Assembly: GCA_016183565.1 (NCBI GenBank)
Contig: JACPEJ010000004.1
Location: 41,178 to 105,177 of the forward strand
Direction of reading: 5' to 3'
From: Candidatus Blackburnbacteria bacterium
GTDB taxonomy: Bacteria > Patescibacteriota > Microgenomatia > UBA8517 > UBA10165
Length of the DNA: 64,000 bases
Position 1 is the first letter of the stretch. Each line of letters begins with the position of its first letter. This document shows positions 25,235 through 43,411 of this stretch, piece by piece. The notes below the pieces were generated by a model. The model made no database searches. It saw only the letters and a list, made by a program, of their open reading frames with translations, and had not been told where the DNA came from. Made by a program: the position numbers and the translations under genes.

Positions 25235-25683
25235 ATTTCAAATCTCTTGAAATCTTGAATTTGTATGTTTTCTCCTGTTTTGGCAATAACGCCTTGTACT
25301 AAAGCATCAATTGTTGTGCTGGGATCTCTAATGTAGTCTTGTTTTTTTAGGTCTTCTACGCTTTCTGGTTTCATAGAAGCAATTTGCATTGCGATTTCGC
25401 GTCCTAATTCTTGAAACTCATCAGTTCGTGCAACAAAATCGGTTTCACAAAGTATCGCGACTATTGATCCGACAGTTCCGGAGTGGTGAATGTAGGAGAA
25501 TATACGGCCTGTTTTTGTCTCGCGACTGGCCTTTTTAGCAGCACGAGTAAATCCAGCTTCTTTCAAAATCTGTCGGGCTTTGTCTTCGTTTCCACGAGAT
25601 TCCTCTAAAGCCCGTTTAACATCCATAACACTAGCACTCGTAGCCTTACGGAGTTTTTTGATTTGGTCAAGAGAGATAGACAT
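25231..25683 (-). CDS. tsf: elongation factor Ts (short form)
   Basis: UBA-like N-terminus ISLDQIKKLRKATSASVMDVKRALEE; start at MSISLDQ; the upstream Met codons fall inside the AT-rich repeat. Confidence 0.75.
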   Translation of the reverse strand: MSISLDQIKKLRKATSASVMDVKRALEESRGNEDKARQILKEAGFTRAAKKASRETKTGRIFSYIHHSGTVGSIVAILCETDFVARTDEFQELGREIAMQIASMKPESVEDLKKQDYIRDPSTTIDALVQGVIAKTGENIQIQDFKRFEI

Positions 25684-25790
25684 AATTTTCAATTTACAAT
25701 TTTTAATTTTCAATCAAGTATCATTCATTCAATTTTCAATGAAAATTAATCAATGAAAATTGTAAATTAAAAACTGATCATTTTTTCAGG
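25684..25790. repeat. AT-rich palindromic intergenic element
   Basis: aattttcaatttacaatttttaattttcaat ... aattttcaatgaaaattaatcaatgaaaattg between rpsB and tsf. Confidence 0.7.
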
Positions 25791-26491
25791 GTTGCAGTCT
25801 TTTGTTCCTCGAACTTTTTCTTTCCTTCCTCAATCGCTTTCCCAACAAAATCAAGTATGAGCGATATTGCTTTCACTGCGTCATCGTTTGCTGGGATAGG
25901 ATAGTTGACCAGGTCGGGATTTGCGTTAGTGTCAACTATTGCAACCATTGGTACACCAAGTTGATTGGCTTCTTTAACGACACCGTCTTCTTTGTGAGTA
26001 TCAACTACAAAAATCATATCAGGAATGTTTTTTAAATTCACTAGTCCTCCGAAGAGTCTTTCCAGACGTCCGATTTCTCTATCTATCAAGAGCTTTTCTT
26101 TCTTGGTGTAACCTTTGAATCCTCCGGATTCTCTTTTTTCTCTCAAGTCACTTAACTTTTTGACAGATCGGCGCATTTGCTCAAAATTGGTTAGTGTTCC
26201 TCCAAGCCAACGATGGGTAACATATGGCATTCCTGTTTTTTTAGCTAAATCTTGAATTAAATCTTTGGCTTGTCTTTTTGTGCCAACTAAAAGGATTGCT
26301 CCGCCTTTTGAAACTGTGTCTTTTATAGCTTTAGCAGCTTCCAAAAGAGCATCGCGAGTTTTTGCAAGGTCAAAAATATGCACACCTTCGCGGCTGCCAT
26401 AGATAAATGGGGCCATTTGAGGATCCCAACGACGGGTCTGGTGTCCAAAATGCACACCAGCCTCCAATAATTCTTCTAAAGTTATGTCCAT
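25778..26491 (-). CDS. rpsB: 30S ribosomal protein S2
   Basis: EAGVHFGHQTRRWDP S2 signature; start at MDITLEEL with AAGGAG RBS 4 nt upstream. Confidence 0.9.
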   Translation of the reverse strand: MDITLEELLEAGVHFGHQTRRWDPQMAPFIYGSREGVHIFDLAKTRDALLEAAKAIKDTVSKGGAILLVGTKRQAKDLIQDLAKKTGMPYVTHRWLGGTLTNFEQMRRSVKKLSDLREKRESGGFKGYTKKEKLLIDREIGRLERLFGGLVNLKNIPDMIFVVDTHKEDGVVKEANQLGVPMVAIVDTNANPDLVNYPIPANDDAVKAISLILDFVGKAIEEGKKKFEEQKTATLKK

Positions 26492-26602
26492 TGACTCCTT
26501 AAACCACCATCCGACAGAAGCTTCAGGAGTCCAGCCGGATGTGAGTGATGTCCTGTATTTTACCAGAAACAAATTTGCCGCGCAAACCTTATTGAAGTAT
26601 CT

Positions 26603-26634
26603 ATAGATATTTGGAATATTAATATCTATTTTGT
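26603..26634. repeat. 32-bp direct repeat, copy 1 (ends in ttgaaa)
   Basis: ggaatattaatatctattttgtcttcttgaaa; same at 27992. Confidence 0.6.
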
Positions 26635-26883
26635 CTTCTTGAAAAACCAGCAGTATATTTTCTCTCTTCGAAAGGAAGACAATTGGTTGCAAATTTATAC
26701 CTTGCTCACTATCCCAATAAAGTTAAGGAACTTTTGCAAGATTTTAAAGATCATCTTAATGATGGAATAATACTTGAGGATAACAAGATTCAATTCTTTA
26801 CCCCAGCATTTTATGTGGTATTAGAAGAACTTATTCCCCTCTTAAAATTAAAACCTGATGCATATATGTATTATGAAGCTCCG

Positions 26884-27084: not shown

Positions 27085-27954
27085 TTGAGTATTATACTCA
27101 GCATTATGTCCATAGATCTTGAGCAAGAGCTTGGAAAGTTCAGAGAAGACAGCATCCCAGGAAAGGCTTCCTTAGCAAGGGCGTTTAGTGCTGTATCAGA
27201 AGCTTGGAGAGAACAATATGGACCACTTCCAACAATAGGCAAAGTAACTCCAGCAGACAGTCATAAAACAGTGGATGATCCTTTAATCAGTCCTCATGAA
27301 CAAATTCGGACTTCCTTAGGACTTGCTCCAGAACAATTAGCACAACAACCAGATCAAATTACCCCAGATACTAAAGCGTATATCGGACCTTTAGTACATC
27401 GTGATAGTAAAGGCGAAATTATCCCAATTTTCAGTAAGCTAGGTAGTGTTGACCATGTCTATAGACCTGACGGTACAGAAATCCCTCGGTGGCGTTTACC
27501 GTATGGCGGTAAAAGCGTTTCTCAATTAGAATCGGAACTGGACGGTGCAGGAGTTTGGGTTAGTCCCGATGCAGGATACATACTAAGATACATGTTTAGG
27601 AGTAAAGAATTTACCACTCAAGCTAAACCCGAAGTTGCAGAACTGATGATGCCAACTGTTGAGGATATGGGATTCCCTGAAGTAACAAGATGGCAAATGC
27701 TTTTCGATCAGACAAAGGCTTTAGGGGGCGTATGCTCGCCTGAAATAGGTCCTTACCAAAGATTATACGATCGAGAACAAAAGCCCAACACTTGGTATTA
27801 TGTTGTTATGGAACCAATTGCTGACTCCTACGGCTATCCGCTCGTCTTCAGGGTGATACGGGATGGTGTCAGGCGTTGGTTGCGCGGCCATTGGGTTTAT
27901 CCTGACTACAGGTGGGATCCTACGACTCCGGTGGTTGTTACTCTTGGCAAGTAA
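27085..27954 (+). CDS. hypothetical protein
   Basis: 289-aa ORF; no recognised motif. Confidence 0.4.
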   Translation: MSIILSIMSIDLEQELGKFREDSIPGKASLARAFSAVSEAWREQYGPLPTIGKVTPADSHKTVDDPLISPHEQIRTSLGLAPEQLAQQPDQITPDTKAYIGPLVHRDSKGEIIPIFSKLGSVDHVYRPDGTEIPRWRLPYGGKSVSQLESELDGAGVWVSPDAGYILRYMFRSKEFTTQAKPEVAELMMPTVEDMGFPEVTRWQMLFDQTKALGGVCSPEIGPYQRLYDREQKPNTWYYVVMEPIADSYGYPLVFRVIRDGVRRWLRGHWVYPDYRWDPTTPVVVTLGK

Positions 27955-27991
27955 CACTTGTGCCGCTTATTCTCTTTAAATTTTGATCCTC

Positions 27992-28023
27992 GGAATATTA
28001 ATATCTATTTTGTCTTCTTGAAA
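27992..28023. repeat. 32-bp direct repeat, copy 2
   Basis: identical to 26603..26634. Confidence 0.6.
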
Positions 28024-28046
28024 GAATAGTTTACACGGAATATAGT
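28018..28046 (+). promoter_or_regulatory. sigma-70-like promoter TTGAAA-17-TATAGT, probably leaderless
   Basis: -35 at 28018 and -10 at 28041; ATG at 28053 is only 7 nt after the -10. Confidence 0.45.
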
Positions 28047-28052
28047 TTGAGA

Positions 28053-28370
28053 ATGCTTACTAAAAATGATTTTGATCAAATCAGAGGGATAATAAGAGAA
28101 GAAGTAGAAAATGAGGTGCAAGCATCCAGAGACTCCTTAGATAGCACTATCAGAGAAGCACGTGTGAGGATACAGACGGATGTACGGGACCAAGCCGACA
28201 GAATTAAGAACTTGGAAATTCGTATAACGGGAAATCACAAAGAACTTAAAAAAGAAATTCGGCAAGTAGCCGACTTCCTGGATAAGGAAAACTTGAAAAC
28301 TCAAAAGCGTGTAAGCAGGATTGAAGACCATCTCGACTTACCCCTAATGCCATCTGGTTCAACCTCTTAA
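28053..28370 (+). CDS. hypothetical coiled-coil protein
   Basis: 106-aa charged helical ORF. Confidence 0.4.
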   Translation: MLTKNDFDQIRGIIREEVENEVQASRDSLDSTIREARVRIQTDVRDQADRIKNLEIRITGNHKELKKEIRQVADFLDKENLKTQKRVSRIEDHLDLPLMPSGSTS

Positions 28371-28524: not shown

Positions 28525-29334
28525 TTAAGTCCTCTTACTCGCTGCCTCAACTAGGTTTTCGAGGAGACAGGCAACAGTCACTGGGCCAATGCCGCCTGGT
28601 ACGGGGGTAATAAATGATGCAACAGATTTTACTGAGTCAAAATCAACGTCTCCACCGGGTGCTCCAACGTCAATAACAATGGCGTTTTTTTTAATCATAT
28701 CTCCGTTGATAATCCGGGGGTTCCCTGTTGCAGAGATAACAATATCTGCTTTTTTCGTTTGGAACCAAACATCTTGAGTTGTTACGTCTATTTCAATAAC
28801 TTGTGCAGCGTAATCTTTCAAAACTTTAGTCAAAGCTCGGCCTACTATTCCAGTTGCCCCTACAACAGCCACCTTTACACTCACCAAGCTGAGCTTGGTG
28901 AGGCTAAGGCCTGCATCATTTAGTGCTACAAGGACAGCTTTTACAGTTGCAGGCAAAAAGGGCGAGTCGTCCCTCAAACCGTCAACATCTTTTTCTTTTG
29001 TAATAGCTTCCAGCAAAGCTTGCCAGTTTTTTTCCTGGAATGCAAATTCTCCTGAAGGGTGTTGTACTAGAATTCCGTGAACAGCAGGATCCTTTGAAGA
29101 TTCTCTGATTTGTGAGACTGCATCTTGCGCTCTATAGATCTCAATATCCTCAAATTCTATTCCGACACTTTGTGCTTTTTGCTTTTTGATCCGCGTATAC
29201 AAAGCGCTCCCTGGATCATCTGGTTTGTAGAAGCTTATAAGTTTTGGGGTAAAATGGAGTTTCGCAACTCTACGTCGCACATTCTCCGAAATTTCCTCGG
29301 CCTTTCTTTTTCCGTCAAAAATTTTTGCAGACAT
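28525..29334 (-). CDS. folD: bifunctional methylenetetrahydrofolate dehydrogenase/cyclohydrolase
   Basis: GILVQHPSG...; Rossmann GATGIVGRALTKVL; C-terminal PVPGGIGPVTVACLLEN. Confidence 0.85.
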   Translation of the reverse strand: MSAKIFDGKRKAEEISENVRRRVAKLHFTPKLISFYKPDDPGSALYTRIKKQKAQSVGIEFEDIEIYRAQDAVSQIRESSKDPAVHGILVQHPSGEFAFQEKNWQALLEAITKEKDVDGLRDDSPFLPATVKAVLVALNDAGLSLTKLSLVSVKVAVVGATGIVGRALTKVLKDYAAQVIEIDVTTQDVWFQTKKADIVISATGNPRIINGDMIKKNAIVIDVGAPGGDVDFDSVKSVASFITPVPGGIGPVTVACLLENLVEAASKRT

Positions 29335-29336
29335 GG

Positions 29337-30665
29337 TTATGGTACTGGGAATTTTTGACACAAGTCTTTTACTTTTCCGGCAATCTCTTGCAGCACCTTA
29401 TTTCCTTTTATCCGTACTTTAAACTCTTTTAAGAAAGCTTGTTTTCCGTCTTTGTCTTCGGGCAATTTTTCATTCTCAACCTCCCCGACCGCCTTAATAA
29501 TCCACTCTGCGATTTTGGTCATTTCTGTTTCTCCCATGCCGCGGGTTGTGACAGCAGGGGTTCCCAAGCGGATACCCGAGGGATAGAATGGCGAAGTATC
29601 ACCTGGAATACTATTTTTGTTACACACAATTCTTGCTTTTTCCAGAGCTTCGGCAACAACATTTCCAGAAAGCCCGTTGGGTCTCAAGTCCACAAGCATC
29701 AGGTGGCTTTCTGTCCCACCGCCGATCAGTTTTAGCCTTGCAAGGGGACGCCTTGCAAGGCTAGAGCCCTCCTGCAGCGCTTGAGCTAGAACTTTGGCAT
29801 TGGCAACCACTTGCTTAGCATATTTTTTGAATTCCGGAGTGTCTGCTTCAAAAAGAGCCTGGGCGATACCGGCGGTTGTGTTGTTATGGGGTCCACCTTG
29901 CAACCCAGGAAATACTGCTCTATCTATGTCTTCCCCCAACTTCCCATACTTCCCCAATCCCTTCTCAGTTACCATAATCATCGCACCCCTTGGCCCCCGT
30001 AATGTTTTATGCGTCGTAGTCGTGACAATATGTGCATACGGAAAAGGAGAAGGATAAACGTTACCAATAATAAGTCCGACAACATGAGCAATATCGGCAA
30101 CTAAGTAGGCACCAACTGAATCGGCAATTTCGCCAAAAAGCTTCCAGTCTAGAGCAAGAGGGTAAGCAGTAGTGCCAATAATTATCACTCTTGGTTTTTC
30201 TGCCTTCGCAAGAGCTTGAACCTTTTTGTAATCTATGGTTCCATCTCCCTCGACACCAAATTGCACAGAACGAAAATACTTTCCAGAAAAAGTGATCTTC
30301 GGTTGGCCGTGAGTAAGATGGCCACCTGAAGCAAGTTCCATGCCCATGATAGTGTCACCCGGCTCACAGAGAGCGAATAAAACCGCTGAGTTTGCAGGAC
30401 TTCCGGAATAAGGTTGGACATTAGCATGAGGAACGTTAAAAAGTTTTTTTGCCCGTTCTATTGCTAAACGTTCCACTTCATCAACGAGATCATTTCCTTG
30501 GTAGTATCGCCTCCCTGGATAACCTTCAGAGTATTTATTGGAAAGCACACTACCAACTGCCTCTCGGACAGCTCTTGAAGCATAGTTTTCGGAAGGAATT
30601 AGGGTTAGTGTATTCTCCTGCCGTTTTTCTTCTCGAGTTATAAGTTCCTGAAGATGTTTGTCCAC
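29337..30665 (-). CDS. glyA: serine hydroxymethyltransferase
   Basis: LTLIPSENYASRAVREAVGSVLSNKYSEGYPGRRYYQGN; PLP-lysine region TTTTHKTLRGPRGA. Confidence 0.9.
   Translation of the reverse strand: MDKHLQELITREEKRQENTLTLIPSENYASRAVREAVGSVLSNKYSEGYPGRRYYQGNDLVDEVERLAIERAKKLFNVPHANVQPYSGSPANSAVLFALCEPGDTIMGMELASGGHLTHGQPKITFSGKYFRSVQFGVEGDGTIDYKKVQALAKAEKPRVIIIGTTAYPLALDWKLFGEIADSVGAYLVADIAHVVGLIIGNVYPSPFPYAHIVTTTTHKTLRGPRGAMIMVTEKGLGKYGKLGEDIDRAVFPGLQGGPHNNTTAGIAQALFEADTPEFKKYAKQVVANAKVLAQALQEGSSLARRPLARLKLIGGGTESHLMLVDLRPNGLSGNVVAEALEKARIVCNKNSIPGDTSPFYPSGIRLGTPAVTTRGMGETEMTKIAEWIIKAVGEVENEKLPEDKDGKQAFLKEFKVRIKGNKVLQEIAGKVKDLCQKFPVP
29734..29764. repeat. palindromic (ccttgcaagg)x2 element inside glyA
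   Basis: agccttgcaaggggacgccttgcaaggctag; encodes an in-frame [10 protein letters not shown] insert. Confidence 0.7.
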
Positions 30666-30701
30666 AAGTGTATTTTAACACTCAGAGAAGGTGAGACAAA
30701 A

Positions 30702-32468
30702 TTAGAAGGTCCAGGGATAGGTTGGTCCGGGTCTAATTCTTTGTTTCATCTTGAGTCGGAGATATTCATAAATTATTGGTTGCACTTCCTTTACTTGATC
30801 TAAAACTGGCCACATAAGCCTGCGGATAAAAGGATGAGCTGTTGGTCCGGTGCGCAAATCCCACAGATGGTAACCCTGGCGCAGATTGTATTTAGCAACC
30901 GTAGGCCTGTAATGAAGTCTTGTGACACAATAGTGAGCAGTGTATGGATCGACTTGGTAAACTGCGTTAAATAATCCTTCTACTTCTCCCATCACGCGTT
31001 TTATTGCCCCCACAGCGCCATGGAATTGTGGGTCAGATGACTCATCCATTTCTTGGGCAAGAGGTGGAATCATATACCCCCAGCGAACATCAAGGTCTTT
31101 TATGTAATACGACTGTATTCTGTGACGTTTATATTCTCGCAAATCACCATATGTCATTCCGGGATAGTCGACAATATAATCTCCGGGCATTTCTAAAGCT
31201 CTAATAGGCGCATCGTGCGTCCCTAAGCCCCCAAGGAGTTTTTCCATTACTCGACGTTTTTCACCAAGGTCCATTTTACCAACAAGTTCCATCAACTTCC
31301 CAAACGAGCCGGTGCGAGCATCTTGAAAAAGCGCTGTTGCAATCAATTTATCGTCAGCTCGGGGATCTGCTTCTAAAACAACTGCTGGTTTTCGGTCTTC
31401 TCTGAACTCAGGGATATATCCTTGGAAGCGAGTTTCTTCTGCGAGTTGACCTATTCCTCGACGTGCTGCCACTAGGTACTCGTTTCGGTCTGCATATCTA
31501 ACAAGAGTTGGTGCTACCCTTAGCGATTGTTCCTTGATAAGGCTGCCAAGTGACCGAATTGAAGGATATGGAGAAGATAGGAATTTTTGGATTAAATGTT
31601 CTGCTGTACGAGCGTTTAAGGTAATACCAACACTTGTAAGGCGAGACGCAGGTAACAAATTTTTCATTTGATCTGCGACTGTTTTTGTCATTACTTTTCT
31701 GGTCGGCCATTTGGCCCTTGCTTCATCAGTTTGGATATAGCCCATGCCCTTAACCATTAATAAATCGTTAAGCTCAAAAAGCATTGCGTGCACTTGATGC
31801 CAACGGGCTGACAACACCGGATCCTGTTTTACAACATCAGGAGTGTAATAACCAACATCTTGTCTTCCTTTAAATCGAGCTGAAAACTCAGTAAATGATG
31901 CTAGACGGTTGTCCGTTACCCAATCACCGTCTAGGGAAGGTATTCCTTCAACAGCTAAGTGGATAATGGCATGTTCAGCAACTGAGGCATGGCCGTACCC
32001 TTCCACACTTACTGTCCATTTTCTATGAAACTCTCGGGCACCTTCTTCGGTAATTGCGCGGCCGTGTTCCTCAATTGACCCTGGCTCTCGCGAGACGCGG
32101 GCGAGCATAACAGCTAGTTCTTCCTCTGTTCGGAGAGCGTGAGTGATAAAATCTATTTCCTTGGGATATGCTTGTTCTCCGTCTTTTATTGCATCGTCAA
32201 GTAAGGCTGCTGCGGCAAATAGACCTGTGAAAGAAATTCTGTCTTCTTGGAAAGCTATCAAAGATTCGTGCAATACTTTGCCCACGTCGGAGAAACGTCC
32301 CACGCGCAATCCCCATGCCGCAGCGGAATCAACAAGCTTGCGTTTTAACTCGGGGGTAAAACCTAGTGGATAGACACAAACAGAAGTGTCGGCAGCAACC
32401 AATCCCTCGCGAACTTCTTGTGGTTGTACTTGGGCTATTCTTTGTTCTCTTTGTTCTGCTGTTGCCAT
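30702..32468 (-). CDS. long, divergent ThyX-family (Thy1/FAD-dependent thymidylate synthase-like) protein, tandem-domain
   Basis: first half has a degenerate ThyX core (GHASVAEHAIIHLAVEGIPSL...DNRLASFTEFSARF); second half has RHR (EYKRHRIQSY); about 590 aa versus about 230 for canonical ThyX. Confidence 0.55.
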   Translation of the reverse strand: MATAEQREQRIAQVQPQEVREGLVAADTSVCVYPLGFTPELKRKLVDSAAAWGLRVGRFSDVGKVLHESLIAFQEDRISFTGLFAAAALLDDAIKDGEQAYPKEIDFITHALRTEEELAVMLARVSREPGSIEEHGRAITEEGAREFHRKWTVSVEGYGHASVAEHAIIHLAVEGIPSLDGDWVTDNRLASFTEFSARFKGRQDVGYYTPDVVKQDPVLSARWHQVHAMLFELNDLLMVKGMGYIQTDEARAKWPTRKVMTKTVADQMKNLLPASRLTSVGITLNARTAEHLIQKFLSSPYPSIRSLGSLIKEQSLRVAPTLVRYADRNEYLVAARRGIGQLAEETRFQGYIPEFREDRKPAVVLEADPRADDKLIATALFQDARTGSFGKLMELVGKMDLGEKRRVMEKLLGGLGTHDAPIRALEMPGDYIVDYPGMTYGDLREYKRHRIQSYYIKDLDVRWGYMIPPLAQEMDESSDPQFHGAVGAIKRVMGEVEGLFNAVYQVDPYTAHYCVTRLHYRPTVAKYNLRQGYHLWDLRTGPTAHPFIRRLMWPVLDQVKEVQPIIYEYLRLKMKQRIRPGPTYPWTF

Positions 32469-32470
32469 AT

Positions 32471-33010
32471 TTAAACTTGCTTTTCTCGGGCAGTTGCTGC
32501 AACACGGCCACCTTGCCACTGCCCTCTGTAGTTTGAACCACCACCTGAGACTTCGGAAAACTGAATGTGTGCAACTCGTGCACCCATTTCGATTGTAACC
32601 GGAACGGGCCCAGTATTTTTCAATCCAAAAATAAGTTTTCCTTTGTATCCTGGTGCAACTTGGGTTGCCATAAAATTAACTCCACTTCTAAAAAGTGTGG
32701 ATCTGGGGAAATTTCGCGCTGTTAAGTTGTCGGGTAAAGAAACTTCCTCCATGGTTTCCATAAGAACAAAATCATTAGGTTGAATAGTATATGAAGATTT
32801 TTGGTTTTCCTGATATTCAGCGACAACTTCTTCCTTAGGGGTCTGTCGTTCGTCAACTCCCAAAAAAGCTTCGCCTGAGATTTTAAACAATCTGCCTATC
32901 CGAAGATCAAAACCTGCACCTTCCGGATTTGCAAGTTCCCTTTCGCAAAGATTTTGAACAAGGTTTTTAGTTTTAACTAGTTCTAAAAGTTTAGTTGGTC
33001 CGAGTGGCAT
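32471..33010 (-). CDS. dCTP deaminase/dUTPase-fold protein (Dcd-like paralogue)
   Basis: AGFDLRIG...APGYKGKLIFGLKNTGPVPVTIEMGARVAHIQF matches the Dcd/Dut beta-barrel motifs. Confidence 0.6.
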   Translation of the reverse strand: MPLGPTKLLELVKTKNLVQNLCERELANPEGAGFDLRIGRLFKISGEAFLGVDERQTPKEEVVAEYQENQKSSYTIQPNDFVLMETMEEVSLPDNLTARNFPRSTLFRSGVNFMATQVAPGYKGKLIFGLKNTGPVPVTIEMGARVAHIQFSEVSGGGSNYRGQWQGGRVAATAREKQV

Positions 33011-33013
33011 ATT

Positions 33014-33652
33014 TTAAATTTGAGCTGTATCTTGCACACCATATCTTGCCCCATCCCGACCTGAATATGGTTGCAAAGTCGGAGAACTAAGGTGAGTAAA
33101 ACTCATTGCGCAAATTGCTGCACCATGTCTACAAACAGCTGATAATGTTCCGACATTGTGTAATTCCAAAATCGGGTGTCCATCCCAACCAGCGTCGAAA
33201 AGTGGCGCTGCTTGGACCGAGACTCCACGCCTTGCAATGCTACTTTTCCCTTCCATTCTCCCGATAATATCGTCCGGAAGCGTGACCCTTTCTAGTGTAG
33301 TTGCAACAACAACTTCACCGGGATGAATTAACACTTGGCCTAGTTTTCTTACATCAATCCTTATAAAGTATTCTTCAGGAATTGGCCCTGAAAGATCAAT
33401 GTGTGTAAGCCTTGTTGCATCTACAACAAGCGCTTGGTCACCGAGATGTAAATCAACTTTGCAAGTTCCCAAGTCACTCTTTGTTCCAGTTTCAATATTA
33501 GGACACGGGTTAATCCTTATCCGACCCACCTCAACCAATCTTTTAATATCCCTATCTGATAAAGCCGCACCAAAAGGTAATTCGCAAGTTGTGCACCAGA
33601 TCCTTTGTTCTAGTTCTCTTAGCCTTTGTTCAAGAGATTCGAGTGTGGCCAT
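33014..33652 (-). CDS. dcd: dCTP deaminase
   Basis: LSDRDIKRLVEVGRIRINP...HPGE...GRMEGKSSIARRGVSVQAAPLFDAGWDGHPILELHNVG, canonical Dcd motifs. Confidence 0.8.
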   Translation of the reverse strand: MATLESLEQRLRELEQRIWCTTCELPFGAALSDRDIKRLVEVGRIRINPCPNIETGTKSDLGTCKVDLHLGDQALVVDATRLTHIDLSGPIPEEYFIRIDVRKLGQVLIHPGEVVVATTLERVTLPDDIIGRMEGKSSIARRGVSVQAAPLFDAGWDGHPILELHNVGTLSAVCRHGAAICAMSFTHLSSPTLQPYSGRDGARYGVQDTAQI

Positions 33653-34097
33653 CAGAATTAACGAGTTTTAAGACAACTGTGCAATAGTGTTGTAAGGGTT
33701 CTTCAACTTGCAGTGGCGTTTCAGGTGAGAGTGCTGTTGCTAGAGTTTTAACATCTTCCAATGTCATAGAAGTTCGAGGGTTGGTTCTAATTCTTACTTC
33801 GCATACCCTTTTAGAATATACAACTCTGGTTATTGATACTTCTCCTTCGTCCTCTAGGCACTTTCTAATCTGCTGATATTGCGAGGTAAGCACTGCAATA
33901 TTTCCAGCTCCGTGCATTAACTGTACTTTAGTATAATGTGTTTTAATTGCACTATCTGCTGAATTCACTAGTGATGCAAGAGTTCTTTGGTCTTCTCGAA
34001 GACCTTCAATGAAATGATCAAGGTGCGCAAGGCTTTCTTGGGGAATTTCTATTAGTGTAATAGAGGTTTGTGGTTCTTGTTCAGTTCTGACAGCCAT
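33630..34097 (-). CDS. hypothetical protein within the thymidylate cluster
   Basis: 155-aa ORF; no known motif. Confidence 0.4.
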   Translation of the reverse strand: MAVRTEQEPQTSITLIEIPQESLAHLDHFIEGLREDQRTLASLVNSADSAIKTHYTKVQLMHGAGNIAVLTSQYQQIRKCLEDEGEVSITRVVYSKRVCEVRIRTNPRTSMTLEDVKTLATALSPETPLQVEEPLQHYCTVVLKLVNSDGHTRIS

Positions 34098-34185
34098 TTT
34101 TGAATTTGGACAGTTTAGAAAGCACTCTAATACTCTAACTATTAGTTGTCAATAGTTAAAACCAGGGTACGTTTGTTGTGTTTAA

Positions 34186-35796
34186 TCAAATCAACCTCTT
34201 CGCTGTATACTCCTCAAGTTCTTCCCAATTAAAAACAGGTTGACCACACCAACGTTTATCCTCGGGACACCTGGGTCTTATTCCCGCAGCACTTCTTATT
34301 CCACAGGGGGCTAAAAACATAGACTTAGCTTCCGGCAAGACCCCCCTTAACTGCAAAGCTTGTTCACAAGATATAAAGAAAAATTCTTCTTGAGCAAGGA
34401 AACACAAACGTTGTCTTAATCTGTGAAACCAATCAAAAAGGTCCCCAGTCTCAGTTACCTTTATCACATGCGCGTTAGGTAAAAGCAAAAGCGCTTGCTC
34501 GCGGCTCATCCCGCTATCAAGACACTTATTCACTCCTTCGTAAACTCTTCCTAGAATTTTTTCGTAAGCCTCTCGCAACTGCGGAGTTTCTCGAACTACC
34601 TTAGGAATAATATAATCAGGCGTACTGTTATACATTTGGGCAACAGGCAATGTAACTCCATGAGTTCTTCTATGCCTTTGACGTTGAGAATCAGCTGTGT
34701 GTGAAAGACGAGTTATAAACGTTGCACTAACTAACCTTAAACAGTCAGTCAAATAATCAAACATTCCAACATCGTACATATCAGCCAGCAAATGGTTTTT
34801 CGCAGGATCCATGACAAGACCTAACACCTGACTATCGCTTAAATCCAAACCCCCTCCTAAAAATCTCCTCGCAGCAGCCAAGATTACACCTCGACCGTTT
34901 TGTGGGAAAGAAATAAGAAGTGACTGTCGCCCTCCAAGATGTGTGTCAAACACTTCTCTGGTAAACCGGGTGCCAAACTGAGTTGGCGCCTGTGTCGTAA
35001 AATCATTGATAGGCACTCGCAGATCTTTAATGATAGTTGGGTCCTCCTTCGCAATACTTACTATCATCTGCGCTATTACATACCTTGCCTCGTCTGTAAA
35101 ATGAGGCATTTGACTTGCCCGGAATAACCTAAGAAGCTGAAGCTCACTAAGATCGTGATAGTAGTTAGTTTTTTGTGCAATCGGTAAAACATATCTTGCA
35201 ATTTCTTGCGAGGCTTTGATAGTTCTTTCGGCAACAATTACTTCTGCCCACTTTCCCCTAGGGTGCATCGCCTTCTCACGTCTACCTACCTCAGGCTTTA
35301 AAAGTTCTAAGAGTTTAAAATAAGCACGATTCGCAAGATCCGCCGTCTCTGTGTATAACTGTCTCTGTTCACCAGAAAGACCCGTAGGGACAAGATAACT
35401 TCCTGAAACAGCTTCAACATAACGTTGACTTTGCTGCTCACTGTTGTAAAAGGGGTGGCTGTGAAATATATCGTGAGTGGCACTACGGCTTACTCCCTGA
35501 ACGAGCCATGTATACGAGACATGCTGCCGAGTAGTGTGGTGTCCTGCCTCAAGAGTACTATCAGCAATTGCTTCTGATCTCCCGTCCTGCCGCTGCCGCA
35601 TTGGAGCAATCCCAGGAGCATAACACTGGACAGATGTGGTCACTGCAACGTCCCTGGCTCCAAGCCGATTTATACCATCAGGCAGAACAAGTTTCATCTT
35701 TGGGGGATCAACCAAATTTTCTCCAAGCTTAAGATATTCACTAAGATAGGCTTCTACTGTTTTTGTTTGTAGTAATCTTTCTTTTGTTGCCGCCAT
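34186..35796 (-). CDS. thyX: FAD-dependent thymidylate synthase ThyX, long form
   Basis: near-canonical ThyX motif RQHVSYTWLVQGVSRSATHDIFHSHPFYNSEQQSQRYV; RHR later (QRQRHRRTHG); C-terminal LPNAHV...FHRLRQRLCFLAQEE; 536 aa. Confidence 0.7.
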   Translation of the reverse strand: MAATKERLLQTKTVEAYLSEYLKLGENLVDPPKMKLVLPDGINRLGARDVAVTTSVQCYAPGIAPMRQRQDGRSEAIADSTLEAGHHTTRQHVSYTWLVQGVSRSATHDIFHSHPFYNSEQQSQRYVEAVSGSYLVPTGLSGEQRQLYTETADLANRAYFKLLELLKPEVGRREKAMHPRGKWAEVIVAERTIKASQEIARYVLPIAQKTNYYHDLSELQLLRLFRASQMPHFTDEARYVIAQMIVSIAKEDPTIIKDLRVPINDFTTQAPTQFGTRFTREVFDTHLGGRQSLLISFPQNGRGVILAAARRFLGGGLDLSDSQVLGLVMDPAKNHLLADMYDVGMFDYLTDCLRLVSATFITRLSHTADSQRQRHRRTHGVTLPVAQMYNSTPDYIIPKVVRETPQLREAYEKILGRVYEGVNKCLDSGMSREQALLLLPNAHVIKVTETGDLFDWFHRLRQRLCFLAQEEFFFISCEQALQLRGVLPEAKSMFLAPCGIRSAAGIRPRCPEDKRWCGQPVFNWEELEEYTAKRLI

Positions 35797-35797
35797 A

Positions 35798-36067
35798 CTA
35801 ATTCTCAGTTAAACAAATAACTTCTACTCCCACTTCTCCAAAAAGGTTTCTTGTGTAGGGTTGATCCATGTTGTTGTAAAGCTCCCGAAATACTACTTTG
35901 CAGTTACTTCTGAGTGGACAGTTCTTGTACAATGTCCGTTTTCCATTCTGCAGCCAACTTCTGTGCAATGCGGCAAACCCCTGGGCGCACCATTGTAACC
36001 TGTTGATAGTACCATACCATCTCTTACTCTTATTGTTTCCCCGTGCTTCCAAAACCACCTTCGCCAC
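35798..36067 (-). CDS. hypothetical small protein (possibly spurious)
   Basis: 89-aa ORF overlapping the 3' end of dut. Confidence 0.2.
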   Translation of the reverse strand: MAKVVLEARGNNKSKRWYGTINRLQWCAQGFAALHRSWLQNGKRTLYKNCPLRSNCKVVFRELYNNMDQPYTRNLFGEVGVEVICLTEN

Positions 36068-36464
36068 GATCCGACTCAGAAAGTTCTTTTACTTCTTGAA
36101 TGTTTGCTTGTGGCGCTTGTTGCAAGATTCCTTGAGATATCTTATCACCAACCTCAATTGTGCATTCTTCTTTACCCAGGTTGATCATATTCACTCCCCA
36201 TTCGCCTCTATAGCCACTATCAATAACTCCACCTAAGTTGTGAAGTCCATATTTTGTCGCTAATCCGCTTTTGTCTCTTAAAGAAACAAACCAGTCTTCG
36301 GGAATTTCAGAAGCTATGCCAATTATAAACAAATGACGCTCGCCTGGTTTTAAAGTTTCAGTTTCTAGTGAGTAAAGGTCAAAACCAGCGTTAGTAGTGT
36401 GGGCATATTGAGGAAGTTTGGCATTAGGAGAAAGAAGTTTGAATTTAAGACTAGGGCTCTCCAT
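36030..36464 (-). CDS. dut: dUTP diphosphatase
   Basis: trimeric dUTPase motifs AGFDLYS; GVIDSGYRGEWGVNMINLG; RGEGGFGSTG. Confidence 0.85.
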   Translation of the reverse strand: MESPSLKFKLLSPNAKLPQYAHTTNAGFDLYSLETETLKPGERHLFIIGIASEIPEDWFVSLRDKSGLATKYGLHNLGGVIDSGYRGEWGVNMINLGKEECTIEVGDKISQGILQQAPQANIQEVKELSESDRGEGGFGSTGKQ

Positions 36465-36502: not shown

Positions 36503-37390
36503 CTAAAATCCATACGCAGACATTGGGGAATTGCCGATCCTGCTCCTTCTCATTGCGTAAGGAAGTTTTGCGCATTGGTAGGAGCCTGGGATAGTTGTGA
36601 ATGCAGTTTTTATGCCAAGTTCTTTGAAAACTTCCTCACTGGCTTTAGTTTGTGTCCCATAAGGATAAGCGAACGCAGTGACTGGCCCTAGTCCCCGATC
36701 CTCAAGCTGCTCTTGGGCGGTTCTCACTTCATACTTGAGCTTTTCTTCATCCGCACTGCTTAGGTTCTTGTGTGACCACGTGTGGTTTGCGAACGTAATA
36801 AGTCCTGAACCTGCCATTTCTCGAATTTGGTCCCAAGTTAGGTAGTCGGCGCCACCAACAAGTCCGGTTACTATAAAGACTGTTGCAGCTAAGTTGTTTT
36901 TAACAAGTTCAGGGTAGGCGTAGGTATAAAAGTCTCTATAGCCGTCGTCGAAAGTTATAAGTATTGGTTTCCCCGGAAGTGTTCCTGTTAAACCTGCCAA
37001 AAGCTGGTCTGGGGTTAGGGTTGTGTATCCTTTTCCTGCAAGGTAGGCCATTTGGTTTGTAAAGGAGTCATTGGTAACGCTAATATTCTTTTGGTTTTTG
37101 GCCATGGCTTCTTCTAGTGGCTGGATATGATGGTAAAGGATAGCCGGGATGTTTTTGCAAGGACCATACACTTTCGGGTCAGGAAGAGGGATGGGGGTTG
37201 GGGTGGGAGTAGGAGACACAGGTACAGACACAGGCACAGATACAGGGGTAGGAGTTATTAACAGTTCCGCCTTTTTACTATTTTCTGTATCTATATCTGT
37301 ATCTGTGTCTCTGAGGAGGGCCGATCCAGAAATAATGAGTAAACCACCTAACCCCAGGACTATTAAACCAATTAGTCTTTTCTTTCCCAC
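36503..37390 (-). CDS. polysaccharide deacetylase (NodB homology) with membrane anchor and Pro/Thr linker
   Basis: ILITFDDGYRDFYTYAYPELVKNNLAATVFIVTG NodB motif; N-terminal TM; PTPVSVPVSVPVSPTPTPTPIP linker. Confidence 0.75.
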   Translation of the reverse strand: MGKKRLIGLIVLGLGGLLIISGSALLRDTDTDIDTENSKKAELLITPTPVSVPVSVPVSPTPTPTPIPLPDPKVYGPCKNIPAILYHHIQPLEEAMAKNQKNISVTNDSFTNQMAYLAGKGYTTLTPDQLLAGLTGTLPGKPILITFDDGYRDFYTYAYPELVKNNLAATVFIVTGLVGGADYLTWDQIREMAGSGLITFANHTWSHKNLSSADEEKLKYEVRTAQEQLEDRGLGPVTAFAYPYGTQTKASEEVFKELGIKTAFTTIPGSYQCAKLPYAMRRSRIGNSPMSAYGF

Positions 37391-37408: not shown

Positions 37409-37840
37409 TTACGGAAGGACTTTAAATCCTGCACGAGCAAAATCTCGGTCAAAAGTAAAAACCTCTATAAGACCTAAACGCTTCATAACAGCAAAGCTTG
37501 TACAGTCAGTATAAGAAACACCTCGTCCGGGAAGTTCTTTAAAGAATTTCCATGCTTCAACTTCGTCTTGTGCTAACACCCGTTGTGGTCTTTTAAATCC
37601 TGGGGAAATATTAATTCGTTGTTTAAACTTTATAGCAGGCTCTCTTCCCAGTCTTACTCGAAGGAGAGTATAAGTTTCGTCTAGTACAAAGTTTGTGGTC
37701 AGTACTGGTTGTTTTTGCTTAGAAAGACGGCCCCAGAGCTTACGTGCTTGTGAGTTAAAGTCATCGGAAAAGTCAATAAGAGCCTTGAAAGCACTGGTAT
37801 CAACAAAAATTGTGGTGGTTTTTATTTTTTGGTTTTCCAA
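37409..37840 (-). CDS. vapC: PIN-domain toxin (VapC-like)
   Basis: IFVDTSAF...TTNFVLDETYTLL...SYTDCTSFAVMKRLGLIEVFTFDRDF, PIN acidic residues. Confidence 0.75.
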   Translation of the reverse strand: MENQKIKTTTIFVDTSAFKALIDFSDDFNSQARKLWGRLSKQKQPVLTTNFVLDETYTLLRVRLGREPAIKFKQRINISPGFKRPQRVLAQDEVEAWKFFKELPGRGVSYTDCTSFAVMKRLGLIEVFTFDRDFARAGFKVLP

Positions 37841-38085
37841 TCTTCGGTATAAATATATTTATCGTGGTTGATTGCACCATCACGGTCACCGCTTTTGTAT
37901 TTTTTAAACTCACGAGGGTCAAAAAGGAACTTTTTGCTGGTCTTCTTGGAAGGGTACATTGTTCTCTCTATGAGAGAATCGTAAATATATGCAGAAAAAC
38001 TTAATCCTTCGGCTTTTGCCAAGCTCTTATATTTCTCCATTTCTTCCTTCGGCAATCGAATAACAGTAGGCACTAAACTAGACAT
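37822..38085 (-). CDS. antitoxin (ribbon-helix-helix-like) paired with the PIN toxin
   Basis: small ORF overlapping the PIN start; VIRLPKEEMEKYKSLAKAEGLSFSAYI. Confidence 0.5.
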   Translation of the reverse strand: MSSLVPTVIRLPKEEMEKYKSLAKAEGLSFSAYIYDSLIERTMYPSKKTSKKFLFDPREFKKYKSGDRDGAINHDKYIYTEDWKTKK

Positions 38086-38128
38086 AAGTGATATCACGAT
38101 ATCACCTAGTGTAATAATTGTCAAGGGC

Positions 38129-40198
38129 TTATGCTATACTCTTGGGCTGTTCTGGATTCCCTGGTTTTCTCCAAGAAGCCCACTTACATTTTGGATAGAG
38201 GGAACAACCGAAGAATCTTTTTCCTTTGCGTGTTTTTCTTGCTACAACTTCGCCTTTGCTGCAGTCAGGGCATTTTATCCCTAATTCTTCAATATAAGGG
38301 GCTGTCCAATCGCATTCAGGAAAACTTGAGCAAGATAAAAACTTCCCAAATCTTCCAACCCTTACAACCTGTTCTCCAACTTTGCATTTAGGACATTTAT
38401 CCCCTGTTTTTTCTACCTCAACATGTACTCTTTTTGCTGTTTTTTCTGTACTCTCCACCTTACTTTCAAATGGTTTCCAAAATTCGGAAATTATCGGTAC
38501 CCATTGCTTTTCGCCGTTTGCTATCTCGTCGAGATCATCTTCCATTCGGGCTGTGAATTTGTAGTCAACTATGTTGGGGAAATATTTGAATAAAAAGTCG
38601 TTAACAGCTATACCCAAAACAGTTGGAGAGAACTTTCCTTCTGTTTTTTCAACATACTGTCTTGTTTGAATTGTGGAGATAGTAGGCGCATAAGTTGATG
38701 GTCTGCCGATTCCTAGTTTTTCCAGTGTTTTGATAAGACTTGCTTCTGTGTATCTTGGAGGTGGTTGGGTGAACTTTTGTTGTGGATCCACTTTAACCAA
38801 TTGAAGAACCTCATCCTTTTCCACTTCAGGCAATTGAACAGACTCTTCTTCTACTTCCAGTTTGCCGTAAACTACCCTCCAGCCGGAAAACTTCATAATT
38901 TGCCCAGTAGCCGTTAATAAGTAACGGTTAGCTATGGAACTATCTTGCTTTATAGCTTCTACTTTTATGGTCGTCTCGTCAAAAACACTATCTGTCATTT
39001 GGCAGGCAACAAACCTCCTCCAAATAAGCCCGTACAGCTTTTCTGCATCGCTTCCTAATTCTTTTGAAAATTGCCTGCCCGCCAATTGCTTCGCTGCTAG
39101 GCGATAGCAGGCGGGAAAATTGAAAATTGAAAATTTGGCCACGTCAGTTGGCCTTACGGCCTCATGTGCTTCTTGCGCAAGTTTGTTTGAGGTTTTATAG
39201 AATTTTGGTTTTTCAGGCAAAAATTCTTTGCCATATTTTTTTTCAATGAAAGTACGTACAGACGAGACAGCTTCAGATGATAAATTCAAAGAATCTGTTC
39301 TGTGGTAAGTTATCAAGCCTTCTTCGTAAAGTTTTTGGGCAACTGACATTGTTTTTTTTGCGGACCAAAAGTAGGTTCTTGAGGCGGCTTGGGCCATAGT
39401 AGATGTTGTAAATGGCGCGGGGGCTCTCTTGTGAACTTCTTTTCTTTCGATGTCGGAGACTATATATTCGGCTTTGTGAAGATCGGATACCACTCCATCT
39501 GCTTGTTCCTTGTTTTTAACCTCCGCCTTTTTGTCATCTATTTTTACAAGTTTAACTATAAATTCTTCATTTTTGACTTTTGACTTTTGACTTTTGACTT
39601 GACAATATATCTCCCAATATTCCTCAGACTTGAAAGCCTCTATTTCTCTCTCTCGCTCGACTATTAATTTTACTGTAACGCTTTGAACACGGCCGGCTGA
39701 TAAACCTCTTCTTACTTTTCTCCAAAGAAGGGGTGAAAGTTTGTATCCAACAAGTCTATCTAAAACTCGTCTTGCTTGCTGGGCATGATAAAGTTTGAGG
39801 TCAACGTCTCGAGGGTTTTCTAAAGCATGTTTAACAGCTCCTTCTGTGATCTCGTGAAAAACCACCCTGTAGAATTTTGAATTTTGAATTTTGAATTTTG
39901 AACTTGAGCTTACCACGTCCTTGACGTGGTAAGCGATTGCTTCTCCTTCGCGGTCAGGATCTGTGGCAAGGTATATTTTTGAAGCTTGCTTTGCTTCTTG
40001 TTTAATCTTCCCGACTATGTCCTTTTTCTTGGTAACTAAGACATATTCAGGTTCAAAATTATGTTCTATATCAACACCCATTTTGCTTTTTGGCAAATCC
40101 ATAACATGCCCCATTGTGGGTTCAACCACGTATTCCTGCCCCAGGAAGCGACCTAGGGTACGCGCTTTGGTTGGTGATTCAACGATAATTAGATTCAT
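38129..40198 (-). CDS. topA: DNA topoisomerase I
   Basis: Toprim MNLIIVESPTKARTL; DPDREGEAIA; catalytic Tyr domain; C-terminal zinc ribbons CPKCKVGE.../CPDCSKGE. Confidence 0.9.
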   Translation of the reverse strand: MNLIIVESPTKARTLGRFLGQEYVVEPTMGHVMDLPKSKMGVDIEHNFEPEYVLVTKKKDIVGKIKQEAKQASKIYLATDPDREGEAIAYHVKDVVSSSSKFKIQNSKFYRVVFHEITEGAVKHALENPRDVDLKLYHAQQARRVLDRLVGYKLSPLLWRKVRRGLSAGRVQSVTVKLIVEREREIEAFKSEEYWEIYCQVKSQKSKVKNEEFIVKLVKIDDKKAEVKNKEQADGVVSDLHKAEYIVSDIERKEVHKRAPAPFTTSTMAQAASRTYFWSAKKTMSVAQKLYEEGLITYHRTDSLNLSSEAVSSVRTFIEKKYGKEFLPEKPKFYKTSNKLAQEAHEAVRPTDVAKFSIFNFPACYRLAAKQLAGRQFSKELGSDAEKLYGLIWRRFVACQMTDSVFDETTIKVEAIKQDSSIANRYLLTATGQIMKFSGWRVVYGKLEVEEESVQLPEVEKDEVLQLVKVDPQQKFTQPPPRYTEASLIKTLEKLGIGRPSTYAPTISTIQTRQYVEKTEGKFSPTVLGIAVNDFLFKYFPNIVDYKFTARMEDDLDEIANGEKQWVPIISEFWKPFESKVESTEKTAKRVHVEVEKTGDKCPKCKVGEQVVRVGRFGKFLSCSSFPECDWTAPYIEELGIKCPDCSKGEVVARKTRKGKRFFGCSLYPKCKWASWRKPGNPEQPKSIA
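39571..39603. repeat. tandem heptamer (ttttgac)x4 inside topA
   Basis: ttttgacttttgacttttgacttttgacttgac; encodes in-frame VKSQKSKVKN. Confidence 0.6.
39872..39903. repeat. tandem heptamer (gaatttt)x4 inside topA
   Basis: gaattttgaattttgaattttgaattttgaac; encodes in-frame SSSKFKIQNSKF. Confidence 0.6.
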
Positions 40199-41373: not shown

Positions 41374-41619
41374 ACTTTGACATTACCACAATCTGCTGTT
41401 GGTGGTATACTGAGTTTGTGGGGCTGAAGGTATCTTTTACAGAGAACCAGCTTAAGATGCTTGCGGTTGTTGCAGCAGATGCTGGCCAGGTGTTCTTTGC
41501 GATAACAGTGGTTCCTTTTTTAATCAGTCCCAGCCAGACGAGTCTGTTGGCATTCTTTTTTGGGATATCACTCACATTAGCTTGTTGGGTAGCCAGCTTA
41601 ATATTAACAAAGTAAAATC

Positions 41620-41769: not shown

Positions 41770-41937
41770 CTCTTCTGTAACTATTTTTTGACTATAGGTT
41801 GACTTTGGGGGTATTTTATGGTAAGATTAACCACTTTGACAAACCGCAAAACAAGGTCTCTGGGCACAGAGAATTCAAACCTTGTTCGGTGTGTCCAAGA
41901 AAGTTAGTTCGCACATCACAAGTGAAGGAGAAAGGTC

Positions 41938-43385: not shown

Positions 43386-43411
43386 TATGTCTCATCGGTA
43401 TGTCTATCTGT

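Follow-up and report, generated by a model that had tools for sequence, protein, structure and literature searches.

Two oversized homologues of the thymidylate synthase ThyX and two proteins of the dCTP deaminase (Dcd) family lie side by side in a Candidatus Blackburnbacteria genome (Microgenomates, Candidate Phyla Radiation (CPR)), and the question raised by this locus is what such a doubled set of enzymes is for. The whole stretch of DNA under study, hereafter the window, is 64 kb long. An earlier note, made from the sequence alone, had read the cluster as a duplicated and diverged module that might synthesize a non-canonical pyrimidine deoxynucleotide or manipulate the nucleotide pool in defence. 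The findings presented here point to a housekeeping operon for thymidylate (dTMP) synthesis, placed in a conserved chromosomal slot that runs from dprA-topA to rpsB-tsf-frr and is filled by interchangeable modules, a reading to which we give a probability of about 0.7. What is new in the locus is the in-situ exchange among three kinds of module, a two-ThyX intermediate that carries the scar of a pseudogene, and a family of Dcd-like proteins (Dcd-L) devoid of the expected catalytic acids.

The cluster assembles a complete route to dTMP

Genes were assigned to families using Pfam and NCBIfam. Read 5′ to 3′ on the minus strand, they follow the order dprA, topA, a NikA-like open reading frame (ORF), a PIN-domain protein, a deacetylase, dut, a gap of 233 nt, thyX-B, unk155, dcd, dcd-L, thyX-A, glyA and folD; two plus-strand ORFs of unknown function come next, and rpsB, tsf, frr and an M50 protease gene (23577-26692) lie beyond them. 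All nine ORFs that the earlier note had placed on one strand were confirmed on the minus strand, and every enzyme of the route that it had proposed, from dCTP through dUTP and dUMP to dTMP with its supply of methylenetetrahydrofolate (CH2-THF), was recovered by the family models. The 212-aa Dcd (33014..33652, minus strand) scored 135.6 against a TIGR02274 cut-off of 92.8 and aligned to E. coli Dcd (1xs1) with E = 3e-29. Its GKSSIARRG and ILELHN segments correspond to GRSSLARLG and IVLEFYN of the E. coli enzyme, whose catalytic residues are S111, R115 and E138; the Ser/Arg motif (GKSSIARRG), the Asp (in FDAGW) and the catalytic Glu (in ILELHN) were all present. The trimeric dUTPase Dut (36030..36464, minus strand), with 144 aa counted from M38 of its ORF and called with this length in independent assemblies, matched PF00692, exceeded the TIGR00576 cut-off (144.3 versus 102.55) and contained motif 3 (G-x-I-D-S-G-Y-R-G-E) as GGVIDSGYRGEW. 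GlyA, the serine hydroxymethyltransferase that serves as source of CH2-THF (29337..30665, minus strand), reached 504 bits with PF00464 and 530 with NF000586 (cut-off 335), and FolD, the methylene-THF dehydrogenase/cyclohydrolase (28525..29361, minus strand), matched PF00763, PF02882 and the NCBIfam FolD models. Since the NCBIfam alignment begins at residue 10, the true start of folD is probably the ATG at 29334.

In the proposed pathway, Dcd would deaminate dCTP to dUTP, Dut and probably also Dcd-L would convert dUTP to dUMP, and ThyX-A and ThyX-B would each methylate dUMP to dTMP using flavin adenine dinucleotide (FAD), a reductant and CH2-THF. The CH2-THF would come from GlyA, with FolD interconverting the folate forms. 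As in the case of classical ThyX, the company that the two genes keep consists of dUMP-supplying enzymes, glyA and folD. In function the cluster is largely ordinary, a thymidylate pathway of the usual kind built from Dcd/Dut, ThyX, GlyA and FolD, and for this reason it is not worth pursuing for exotic nucleotides or defence.

The juxtaposition of thyX-A and thyX-B is real, because three separate sequencing runs assembled identically: the stretch from the deacetylase to glyA was the same in three independent assemblies, and an assembly chimera was rejected on that ground.

Three kinds of predicted thymidylate synthase alternate in one chromosomal slot

We compared the loci around homologues of the cluster genes, covering 8-10 kb on each side of each gene (related loci carry our handles L001 and so on). 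The topA...rpsB-tsf-frr interval was found to be a conserved dTMP slot in Microgenomates and relatives. Its topA/rpsB anchors were common to L001, L002, L004, L005 and L090-L093, and the flanks were topA and/or rpsB wherever the contig reached them. In the window, the anchors are topA upstream (38129..40198, minus strand; Pfam Toprim, Topoisom_bac and Zn_ribbon_Top1) and rpsB downstream (25778..26692, minus strand), the latter at the head of rpsB-tsf-frr-M50 protease (Pfam Ribosomal_S2, EF_TS, RRF and Peptidase_M50).

The content of the slot differed among relatives. Type A slots (L001, L002, L090, L091, L092, L093, L010 and L138) hold Dcd, Dcd-L and ThyX-A, in some cases together with GlyA-FolD or additional Dcd-fold genes. 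The type B slot consists of a dCMP deaminase, ThyX-B, thymidylate kinase (Tmk), GlyA and FolD in L004, and of a longer Dcd type, ThyX-B, Tmk, thymidine kinase, GlyA and FolD in L005. In a third type (L094, L096, L102 and L103), Dcd, Tmk, Dcd-L and an unknown ORF, checked in some of these loci, precede ThyA, usually followed by dihydrofolate reductase (DHFR) and then GlyA. Neighbouring genes can be closely related across types: TopA and FolD of L005 (type B) and L001 (type A) are 71% and 68% identical, respectively, yet the two loci encode different ThyX types. None of the 11 related loci carried both A and B. Because ThyX-A, ThyX-B and ThyA alternate in the same housekeeping slot, we read A and B both as thymidylate synthases, a reading for which this alternation of three analogous enzymes is strong positional evidence. 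The pattern points to interchangeable thymidylate synthases and not to an exotic pyrimidine pathway or a defence system; with each of A, B and ThyA occupying the same position in relatives, the suggestion of non-canonical pyrimidine synthesis was not borne out.

A 484-aa unknown ORF lies between Dcd-L and ThyA in L094 (3041-4495), with equivalent gaps in L096, L102 and L103. It was considered as a hidden third ThyX type and rejected, as it showed no similarity to family A and no Pfam hit.

Patchy and mutually exclusive distribution of analogous synthases, as seen here, is shared with the non-orthologous displacement known for ThyA and ThyX, and thyA is reported to have been transferred into Patescibacteria (PMC12455944). 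Unlike the known cases, the replacement described here is seen in situ, in one syntenic slot, involves three synthase types and includes one genome that combines two of these with an accessory gene in decay. The locus constitutes a clear example of in-situ replacement among ThyX-A, ThyX-B and ThyA with DHFR, in which an intermediate genome carries two synthases.

ThyX-A and ThyX-B represent two fused families with a divided active-site motif

ThyX-A (588 aa; 30702..32468, minus strand, in an ORF spanning 30702-32519 with the annotated start at 32468) and ThyX-B (536 aa; 34186..35796, minus strand) each gave two Thy1 stretches in Pfam domain parsing, confirming the tandem architecture that the earlier note had suspected. 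Both passed the Pfam gathering score of 24.8 (95.6 for A and 147.7 for B). AlphaFold2 (AF2) models of A (predicted local distance difference test 83.8, predicted template modelling (TM) score 0.80) and B (85.3 and 0.85, respectively) retrieved from the PDB, through Foldseek, exclusively classical single-domain ThyX, the top matches having target-normalised TM scores of 0.63-0.80. Each match spanned ~210-245 residues, roughly half of the query, and no entry spanning both domains was found among the matches of either model. For the ThyX-A model, PolB (4p5b) ranked below M. tuberculosis and C. glutamicum ThyX and the best T. maritima chains. Judged by fold and Pfam threshold, both proteins belong to the Thy1/ThyX superfamily. 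Each half shares the fold of classical ThyX (PF02511), the difference being that the solved ThyX structures matched are single domains of ~180-250 aa whereas A and B are fused two-domain chains. The most fitting description is that of two ThyX subfamilies with fused domains, whose members are putative synthases.

Their length is not an oddity of this genome, since each belongs to a large, lineage-typical family of long ThyX proteins, a finding that the earlier note had itself named among those that would speak against its reading. Family B, the common Patescibacteria type, comprised 3,137 matches of about 510-560 aa that were 45-56% identical and came essentially all from Patescibacteria. Family A, the Chloroflexota/Microgenomates type, gave 147 matches in a word-indexed search; in species-representative genomes, 584 of the 600 pattern matches listed were confirmed, corresponding to at least 584 loci. 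Most of the listed members belong to Dehalococcoidia or other Chloroflexota, measure about 450-480 aa and are found on chromosomes of 2-5 Mb, unclustered with dcd, while the Microgenomates members carry an N-terminal helical extension of up to ~100 residues. A tie between this extension and the presence of Dcd-L was rejected because L002 and L093 have short N-termini yet encode Dcd-L. A tandem-length homologue, annotated as thymidylate synthase, was also seen in the jumbo phage Tunturiibacter phage Tunturi_5 (PP885688.1, 46546-48015); it covers ThyX-A residues 119-588 at 23% identity. The Chlamydia ThyX is also ~530 aa long.

A and B showed no similarity to each other in BLASTP (E = 1.9). They could be linked only by a profile-profile alignment, which extended over 430 columns, was collinear (domain 1 with domain 1, domain 2 with domain 2) and had E = 0.0016 and a probability of 16%. 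A recent duplication was rejected on this basis, which also counts against a duplicated and diverged module.

To locate the classical residues, we aligned both proteins to M. tuberculosis, C. glutamicum and T. maritima ThyX, and the T. maritima numbering was checked on the printed chain after removing its 12-residue tag. Domain 1 of A contains GYGH, the conserved His (H160), D186-N-R188 at the RHR position and K295 at the position of the uracil-binding Arg. Its dUMP loop provides S191, E194, S196, R198 and F199, ending in S-A-R-F in the window protein and mostly in S-x-R-Y across family A. Domain 2 of A keeps R448-H-R450 and R539, the equivalent of T. maritima R174, and its S-G-R-Y loop is deleted. 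The loss of the consensus in the first domain, described in the earlier note for a protein of 590 aa, was thus confirmed for the motifs (TDNR at 185-188, with DNR in place of RHR, and SARF at 196-199), and the length had to be corrected to 588 aa. In B, domain 1 shows GHH, the conserved His (H86), R104, H-S-H-P at the RHR position and an invariant Q-Q-S123-Q-R125-Y126 dUMP loop; domain 2 has R374-H-R376 in the window protein (H/Q at the middle position) and R463, again equivalent to T. maritima R174. The near-canonical RHR and SQRY motifs attributed to this protein do exist, but in different domains (374-376 and 123-126), ~250 residues apart. The positions of the conserved His, the dUMP loop and the uracil Arg could not be mapped reliably in the remaining domains.

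Counterparts of M. tuberculosis H69 (the conserved His) and of T. maritima R174 or M. tuberculosis R199 (the uracil-binding Arg) were present in both A and B, so that the key residues of classical ThyX (conserved His, RHR, S-x-R-Y/F loop and uracil Arg) occur across each chain, and the complete set was found only when both domains were taken together. Family alignments revealed the same complementary loss of motifs in both families, with S-x-R-Y/F in domain 1 and RHR in domain 2. Classical ThyX is a homotetramer with four identical sites (PMC6514825). From the split of the motifs between domains we infer a pseudo-tetramer with two composite sites: as mapped onto the sequence, each long ThyX would be a fused pseudo-dimer, two chains would rebuild the classical tetramer, and active sites would be shared between domains, probably with only two of the four pseudo-sites being catalytic. 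Two deep fused ThyX families with a divided active-site motif, forming what may be a natural 'half-of-sites' pseudo-tetramer, would offer a useful experimental system. The mechanism of ThyX, a drug target, is still under debate.

Both proteins appear well preserved. Of the 59 columns with at least 95% conservation in family A, the window's protein matches 58, E531Q being the single change, and B keeps 86 of 89 conserved family columns, as compared to 84-89 in five control members. The substrate loop of B (117-125) was the sole internal low-confidence AF2 stretch within a functional motif; the dUMP/substrate loop is flexible in classical ThyX. As a separate observation, Cys 58, 465, 498, 510 and 517 of ThyX-B were invariant in 118-119 of the 119 members of family B. 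Of the five, four fall in the C-terminal 75 residues with the spacing C-x32-C-x11-C-x6-C, and the set could form a zinc or iron-sulfur site with no counterpart in classical ThyX.

The window combines a probable ancestral B slot with an A module

The 89-aa ORF (35798-36067) that the earlier note had counted as an unknown gene proved to be spurious. It overlies a frameshifted and internally deleted pseudogene of a ComEB-type dCMP deaminase (35822..36036, minus strand) that fills the 233-nt gap between dut and thyX-B; the ORF was not called as a gene in any of three independent assemblies. In a tblastn search with the dCMP deaminase of L004, residues 35-81 of this enzyme matched the pseudogene at 66% identity (E = 8.5e-17). 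A stop follows the catalytic HAE, which has become HSE; the PCxxC region with the zinc ligands has been deleted, and the C-terminal 26 residues (118-143 of the L004 enzyme) match in another frame. In L004, the intact orthologue precedes ThyX-B. No tmk was found anywhere in the window. The flanks of the window are closest to those of this same type B locus, which lies in a Blackburnbacteria-like genome (GlyA 71%, TopA 65%, RpsB 64% and FolD 59% identity).

Unk155 (33630..34097, minus strand) is a lineage-restricted ORFan of 155 aa with no Pfam, NCBIfam, PADLOC or PHROG match. Among 1.84 billion representatives, only one other homologue cluster was detected, at 38% identity. This homologue, in L138, sits in an unk-Dcd-DcdL-ThyX-A arrangement with no ThyX-B upstream, and because it accompanies the A module in the absence of ThyX-B we assigned unk155 to the A module. 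Homology to the small unknown ORFs of L090, L091, L004 and L104 was sought and rejected. Within the module, unk155 overlaps dcd by 23 nt, and the gaps are 3 nt between dcd and dcd-L and 2 nt between dcd-L and thyX-A. The 88 nt that separate thyX-B from unk155 contain a promoter-like site (TTGACA-17-TAGAGT; 34124..34152, minus strand), from which the A module may be transcribed on its own, a weak hint given that the total of such sites in the region was not above that of shuffled controls.

Altogether, we infer that the window is a composite of A and B modules in which both synthases are intact. The ancestor would have had a B-type slot, and the A module (unk155-dcd-dcdL-thyX-A) would have been gained between thyX-B and glyA, a direction suggested by flank similarity to a single type B relative, L004. 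After the gain, the dCMP deaminase would have decayed and tmk would have been lost from the slot, the dCMP route to dUMP giving way to the dCTP route.

The same scar could be taken to mean that displacement is still in progress, with ThyX-B and its dut neighbour a dispensable leftover of the ancestral module on the way to loss. The dCMP-deaminase pseudogene directly upstream of thyX-B, the tmk missing from the slot and the lack of any related locus with both types would all fit, and so would the sequence of ThyX-B, which is 49-54% identical to other B proteins when these are mutually 53-58% identical, a deficit of 4-6 points. The gene itself speaks against this: thyX-B contains no frameshift or stop, its count of conserved columns lies inside the control range, its five invariant Cys and all motif residues are present, and the proteins are identical across three samples. 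The divergence is compatible with slightly relaxed constraint and far from decay, and we give little credence to an ongoing loss of ThyX-B.

Two intact synthases in one genome

Several observations weigh against the housekeeping reading. Neither protein reached the TIGR02170 equivalog cut-off of 87.9 (48.3 for A and 70.7 for B); the contiguous R-H-R-x7-S-x-R pattern was absent from every domain of both; and T. maritima R147 has no conserved counterpart in domain 2 of A. The literature search found no paper describing a tandem or fused ThyX, nor any biochemical study of one. In A-only and B-only loci, a sole synthase is suggested for the slot, as judged from the 8-10 kb on each side of each gene. 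The greater divergence of the window's ThyX-B contrasts with flanks that are closest to L004. Finally, that a streamlined genome should retain two synthases, both intact, suggests some difference in function over pure redundancy.

Two synthase genes per genome are also known from M. tuberculosis and C. glutamicum (ThyA and ThyX) and from Streptomyces (ThyX and PolB). The C. glutamicum ThyX is dispensable, according to the titles of PDB entries 3ge9 and 3fnn, and the Streptomyces ThyX paralogue has a new function (PMC5954106). Unlike in those organisms, both synthases of the window are of the ThyX family, both are tandem and both lie in one operon with no secondary-metabolite context, and their two families are deeply separated and substitute for one another among relatives.

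By analogy with the Streptomyces pair (PMC5954106), one of the tandem proteins could have been neofunctionalised into a PolB-like flavin/folate-dependent C5-methylase or hydroxymethylase acting on dCMP, UMP or dUTP, the other one making dTMP. Such a change would account for the presence of two ThyX genes in a small genome and for their sub-threshold equivalog scores, and in CPR-type A proteins F does replace Y after the dUMP loop, with no counterpart of M. tuberculosis R87. Yet F is also found at this loop position in C. glutamicum ThyX (SQRF), and the window's A and B keep their family-conserved residues. Each type also stands alone in the same slot of relatives, where it must supply dTMP unless a synthase is encoded elsewhere. 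The PolB-type UMP/dUMP methylase is a single-domain ThyX with altered substrate loops and belongs to a nucleoside-antibiotic cluster, whereas the neighbours here are the core genes topA, rpsB, tsf, frr, glyA and folD; no glycosyltransferase, hypermodification kinase or nucleoside-antibiotic cluster was found nearby. Known phage pyrimidine hydroxymethylases, for their part, have the ThyA fold. A new function for either ThyX is therefore improbable in our view.

Dcd-L lacks both acids expected of the Dcd/Dut fold

What stands out in the locus is the widespread Dcd-L, which is without both of the catalytic acids expected. The 179-aa protein (32471..33010, minus strand; PF22769) exceeded the TIGR02274 cut-off by only 0.2 bits (93.0 versus 92.8) and scored below the cut-offs of the dUTPase models (27.8 versus 102.55 for TIGR00576; 61.4 versus 130 for NF002598). 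Mapping on PDB Dcd and dUTPase chains placed Ala119 (VAPGYKGKLIFGLKN) at the Asp position of dUTPases and Gly129 at the Glu position of deaminases, so that the second Dcd-like protein is not the plain dUTPase that would have counted against the earlier note's reading. These substitutions are a family trait. In the 120 closest of 4,084 homologues, which are 59-78% identical and almost all exactly 179 aa long, the Asp position was occupied by Ala (66), Pro (46) or His (5) and never by Asp, and the Glu position by Gly (96), Ala (23) or Ser (1). A divergent Dcd-L copy in L092 was the only one with the Asp. The result is a very large CPR family that is annotated as dCTP deaminase and whose 120 closest members are nonetheless without the residues for deamination or dUTP hydrolysis, and because of this mismatch metabolic reconstructions may err at the dCTP-deaminase step.

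Dcd-L shares its fold and nucleotide-binding motifs with Dcd, bifunctional DCD-DUT and the archaeal Dcd-like dUTPase. About 55 positions were invariant, including P-G-Y and G-A-R-x-x-H-x-Q-F, the phosphate-binding R-S/T-T-x-F/Y-R-S-G, an N-terminal R-E-L-x-N-P-E-G followed by a Dut-like A-G-F-D-L, and a Gly-rich C-terminal arm, G-G-G-x-x-Y-R-G-Q-W-Q-G-G-R-V...E-x-Q-V. The N-terminal stretch (R-E-L-x-N-P-E-G-A-G-F-D-L-R) and the end of the arm (Y-R-G-Q-W-Q-G-G-R-V...E-x-Q-V) are features of its own. The best PDB matches were 9ln0 and 8y1w, chains of 155-156 aa deposited as 'dCTP deaminase', and a literature search found no paper by the depositors on these entries. Their Glu position is occupied by Met, and the Asp that is gone from Dcd-L (VAPGY) is retained in them (VDPGW); we suspect from their sequences that 9ln0 and 8y1w are archaeal-type dUTPases.

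Dcd-L lies immediately upstream of ThyX-A in the window and in L001, L002, L091, L092, L093 and L138, and one gene away from it in L090; in L010, no Dcd-L was detectable between Dcd and ThyX-A. Since Dcd-L is also found in ThyA-type operons, it is a general component of dTMP operons and not an accessory of ThyX-A. A Glu-bearing Dcd-fold partner shares the operon with Dcd-L in the window and in 12 operon-type loci, this partner being Dcd in the window and in 11 of the 12, and the longer Dcd3 type in L091. Canonical dut stands alongside Dcd-L in the window and in L092, and most A-type and ThyA-type operons are without another dUTPase. In L104, L106 and L108, Dcd-L is present and no Dcd was detected on the fetched stretch.

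The simplest role for Dcd-L, and one that we hold plausible though just short of an even bet, is the dUTP to dUMP step with a relocated general base, for which the invariant E25, E30, E88 and E141 could be candidates. Alternatively, and more tentatively, Dcd-L could be non-enzymatic, a nucleotide-binding partner that, for example, assembles with Dcd into mixed trimers or attaches to the thymidylate synthase, and that would regulate or channel dUTP/dUMP. The lack of Asp and Glu in every one of the 120 closest members would then be expected, as would the operon shared with a Glu-bearing Dcd-fold protein, with the tight gaps of 3 and 2 nt seen in the window, and the occurrence of canonical dut in the window and L092. 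A non-catalytic partner fits less well with an enzyme-like conservation of ~55 positions that includes four glutamates able to act as a relocated base, with the many operons that lack any other dUTPase, and with the three loci in which Dcd-L stands without a detected Dcd.

It is also conceivable, if unlikely, that Dcd-L is a new kind of Dcd/Dut-fold protein and that ThyX-A and ThyX-B are at the same time inequivalent. Dcd-L could in that case be a dUTP/dCTP pyrophosphatase with a relocated base or a non-catalytic subunit bound to Dcd or to the synthase, and the Cys set of ThyX-B might ligate a metal or an iron-sulfur centre and take up electrons from a donor other than that of ThyX-A. If so, the two synthases would be kept for different redox conditions.

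A third and longer class of CPR Dcd-fold proteins (229-298 aa) was seen in L005 (9315-10004), L090 (4823-5527) and L091 (660-1556). It is marked by G-W-G-D-V-G...R-W-T-x-E and a C-terminal W-x-P-x-x-M-L-P, accompanies ThyX-B in L005 and ThyX-A in L090 and L091, and has Leu at the Glu position in the L090 copy. L093 contains a further Dcd-fold copy without both acids (6796-7281). The functional 'Dcd2' of Dictyostelium, which has prokaryotic relatives in CPR and Chloroflexi (PMC10733785), is not to be confused by name with Dcd-L.

Genomic setting and neighbouring genes

Dcd, Dut and ThyX homologues are common in phages, and a PIN toxin with a NikA-like small protein lies between topA and the deacetylase, so an anti-phage nucleotide-pool defence or a mobile or phage-derived island had to be considered. 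None of six proteins had a PADLOC match, no integrase, repeats or tRNA were found at the borders, the composition resembles that of the surrounding genome and the slot is a conserved core-gene position common to many relatives. Known dCTP-depleting defence deaminases, moreover, have the zinc cytidine-deaminase fold and not the Dcd fold. We regard a defence or mobile origin as extremely improbable, and the earlier note's proposal of a nucleotide-pool defence found no support. The higher GC that it had reported for the cluster amounts to a trivial difference (0.40-0.455 for the cluster genes versus 0.418 for the window), and no deviation in GC or in GC at third codon positions marked the A or B module as recently transferred. 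A search for riboswitches or other RNA elements in the 233-nt gap and the rest of 27.5-38.5 kb found none. The sole RNA matches were chance sub-threshold matches to a microRNA model, on both strands at 37212-37312, in the Pro/Val/Thr-rich linker of the deacetylase, and are an artefact.

The polysaccharide deacetylase (36503-37390, minus strand) lies upstream of dut, and dprA (40264-41373, minus strand) upstream of topA. Between topA and the deacetylase (37409-38124, minus strand), the 143-aa PIN-domain protein and the weakly NikA-like small ORF, of 100 aa as listed and 87 aa by gene callers on independent assemblies, are probably an inserted toxin-antitoxin pair; L004 has no such pair at the equivalent position. 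On the other side of the cluster, the plus-strand ORFs of 289 and 107 aa (27085-28370) have no Pfam match and separate folD from rpsB, which adjoin directly in related loci. Between dprA and the PBP2 gene, a stretch of about 2 kb (41400-43400) showed a GC of ~0.50, as compared to 0.42 for the window, and contains ORFs of 191 and 120 aa without Pfam match. Farther along the window, four tRNA genes (Thr-GGT, Tyr-GTA, Thr-TGT and Trp-CCA) form a cluster at 55785-57037.

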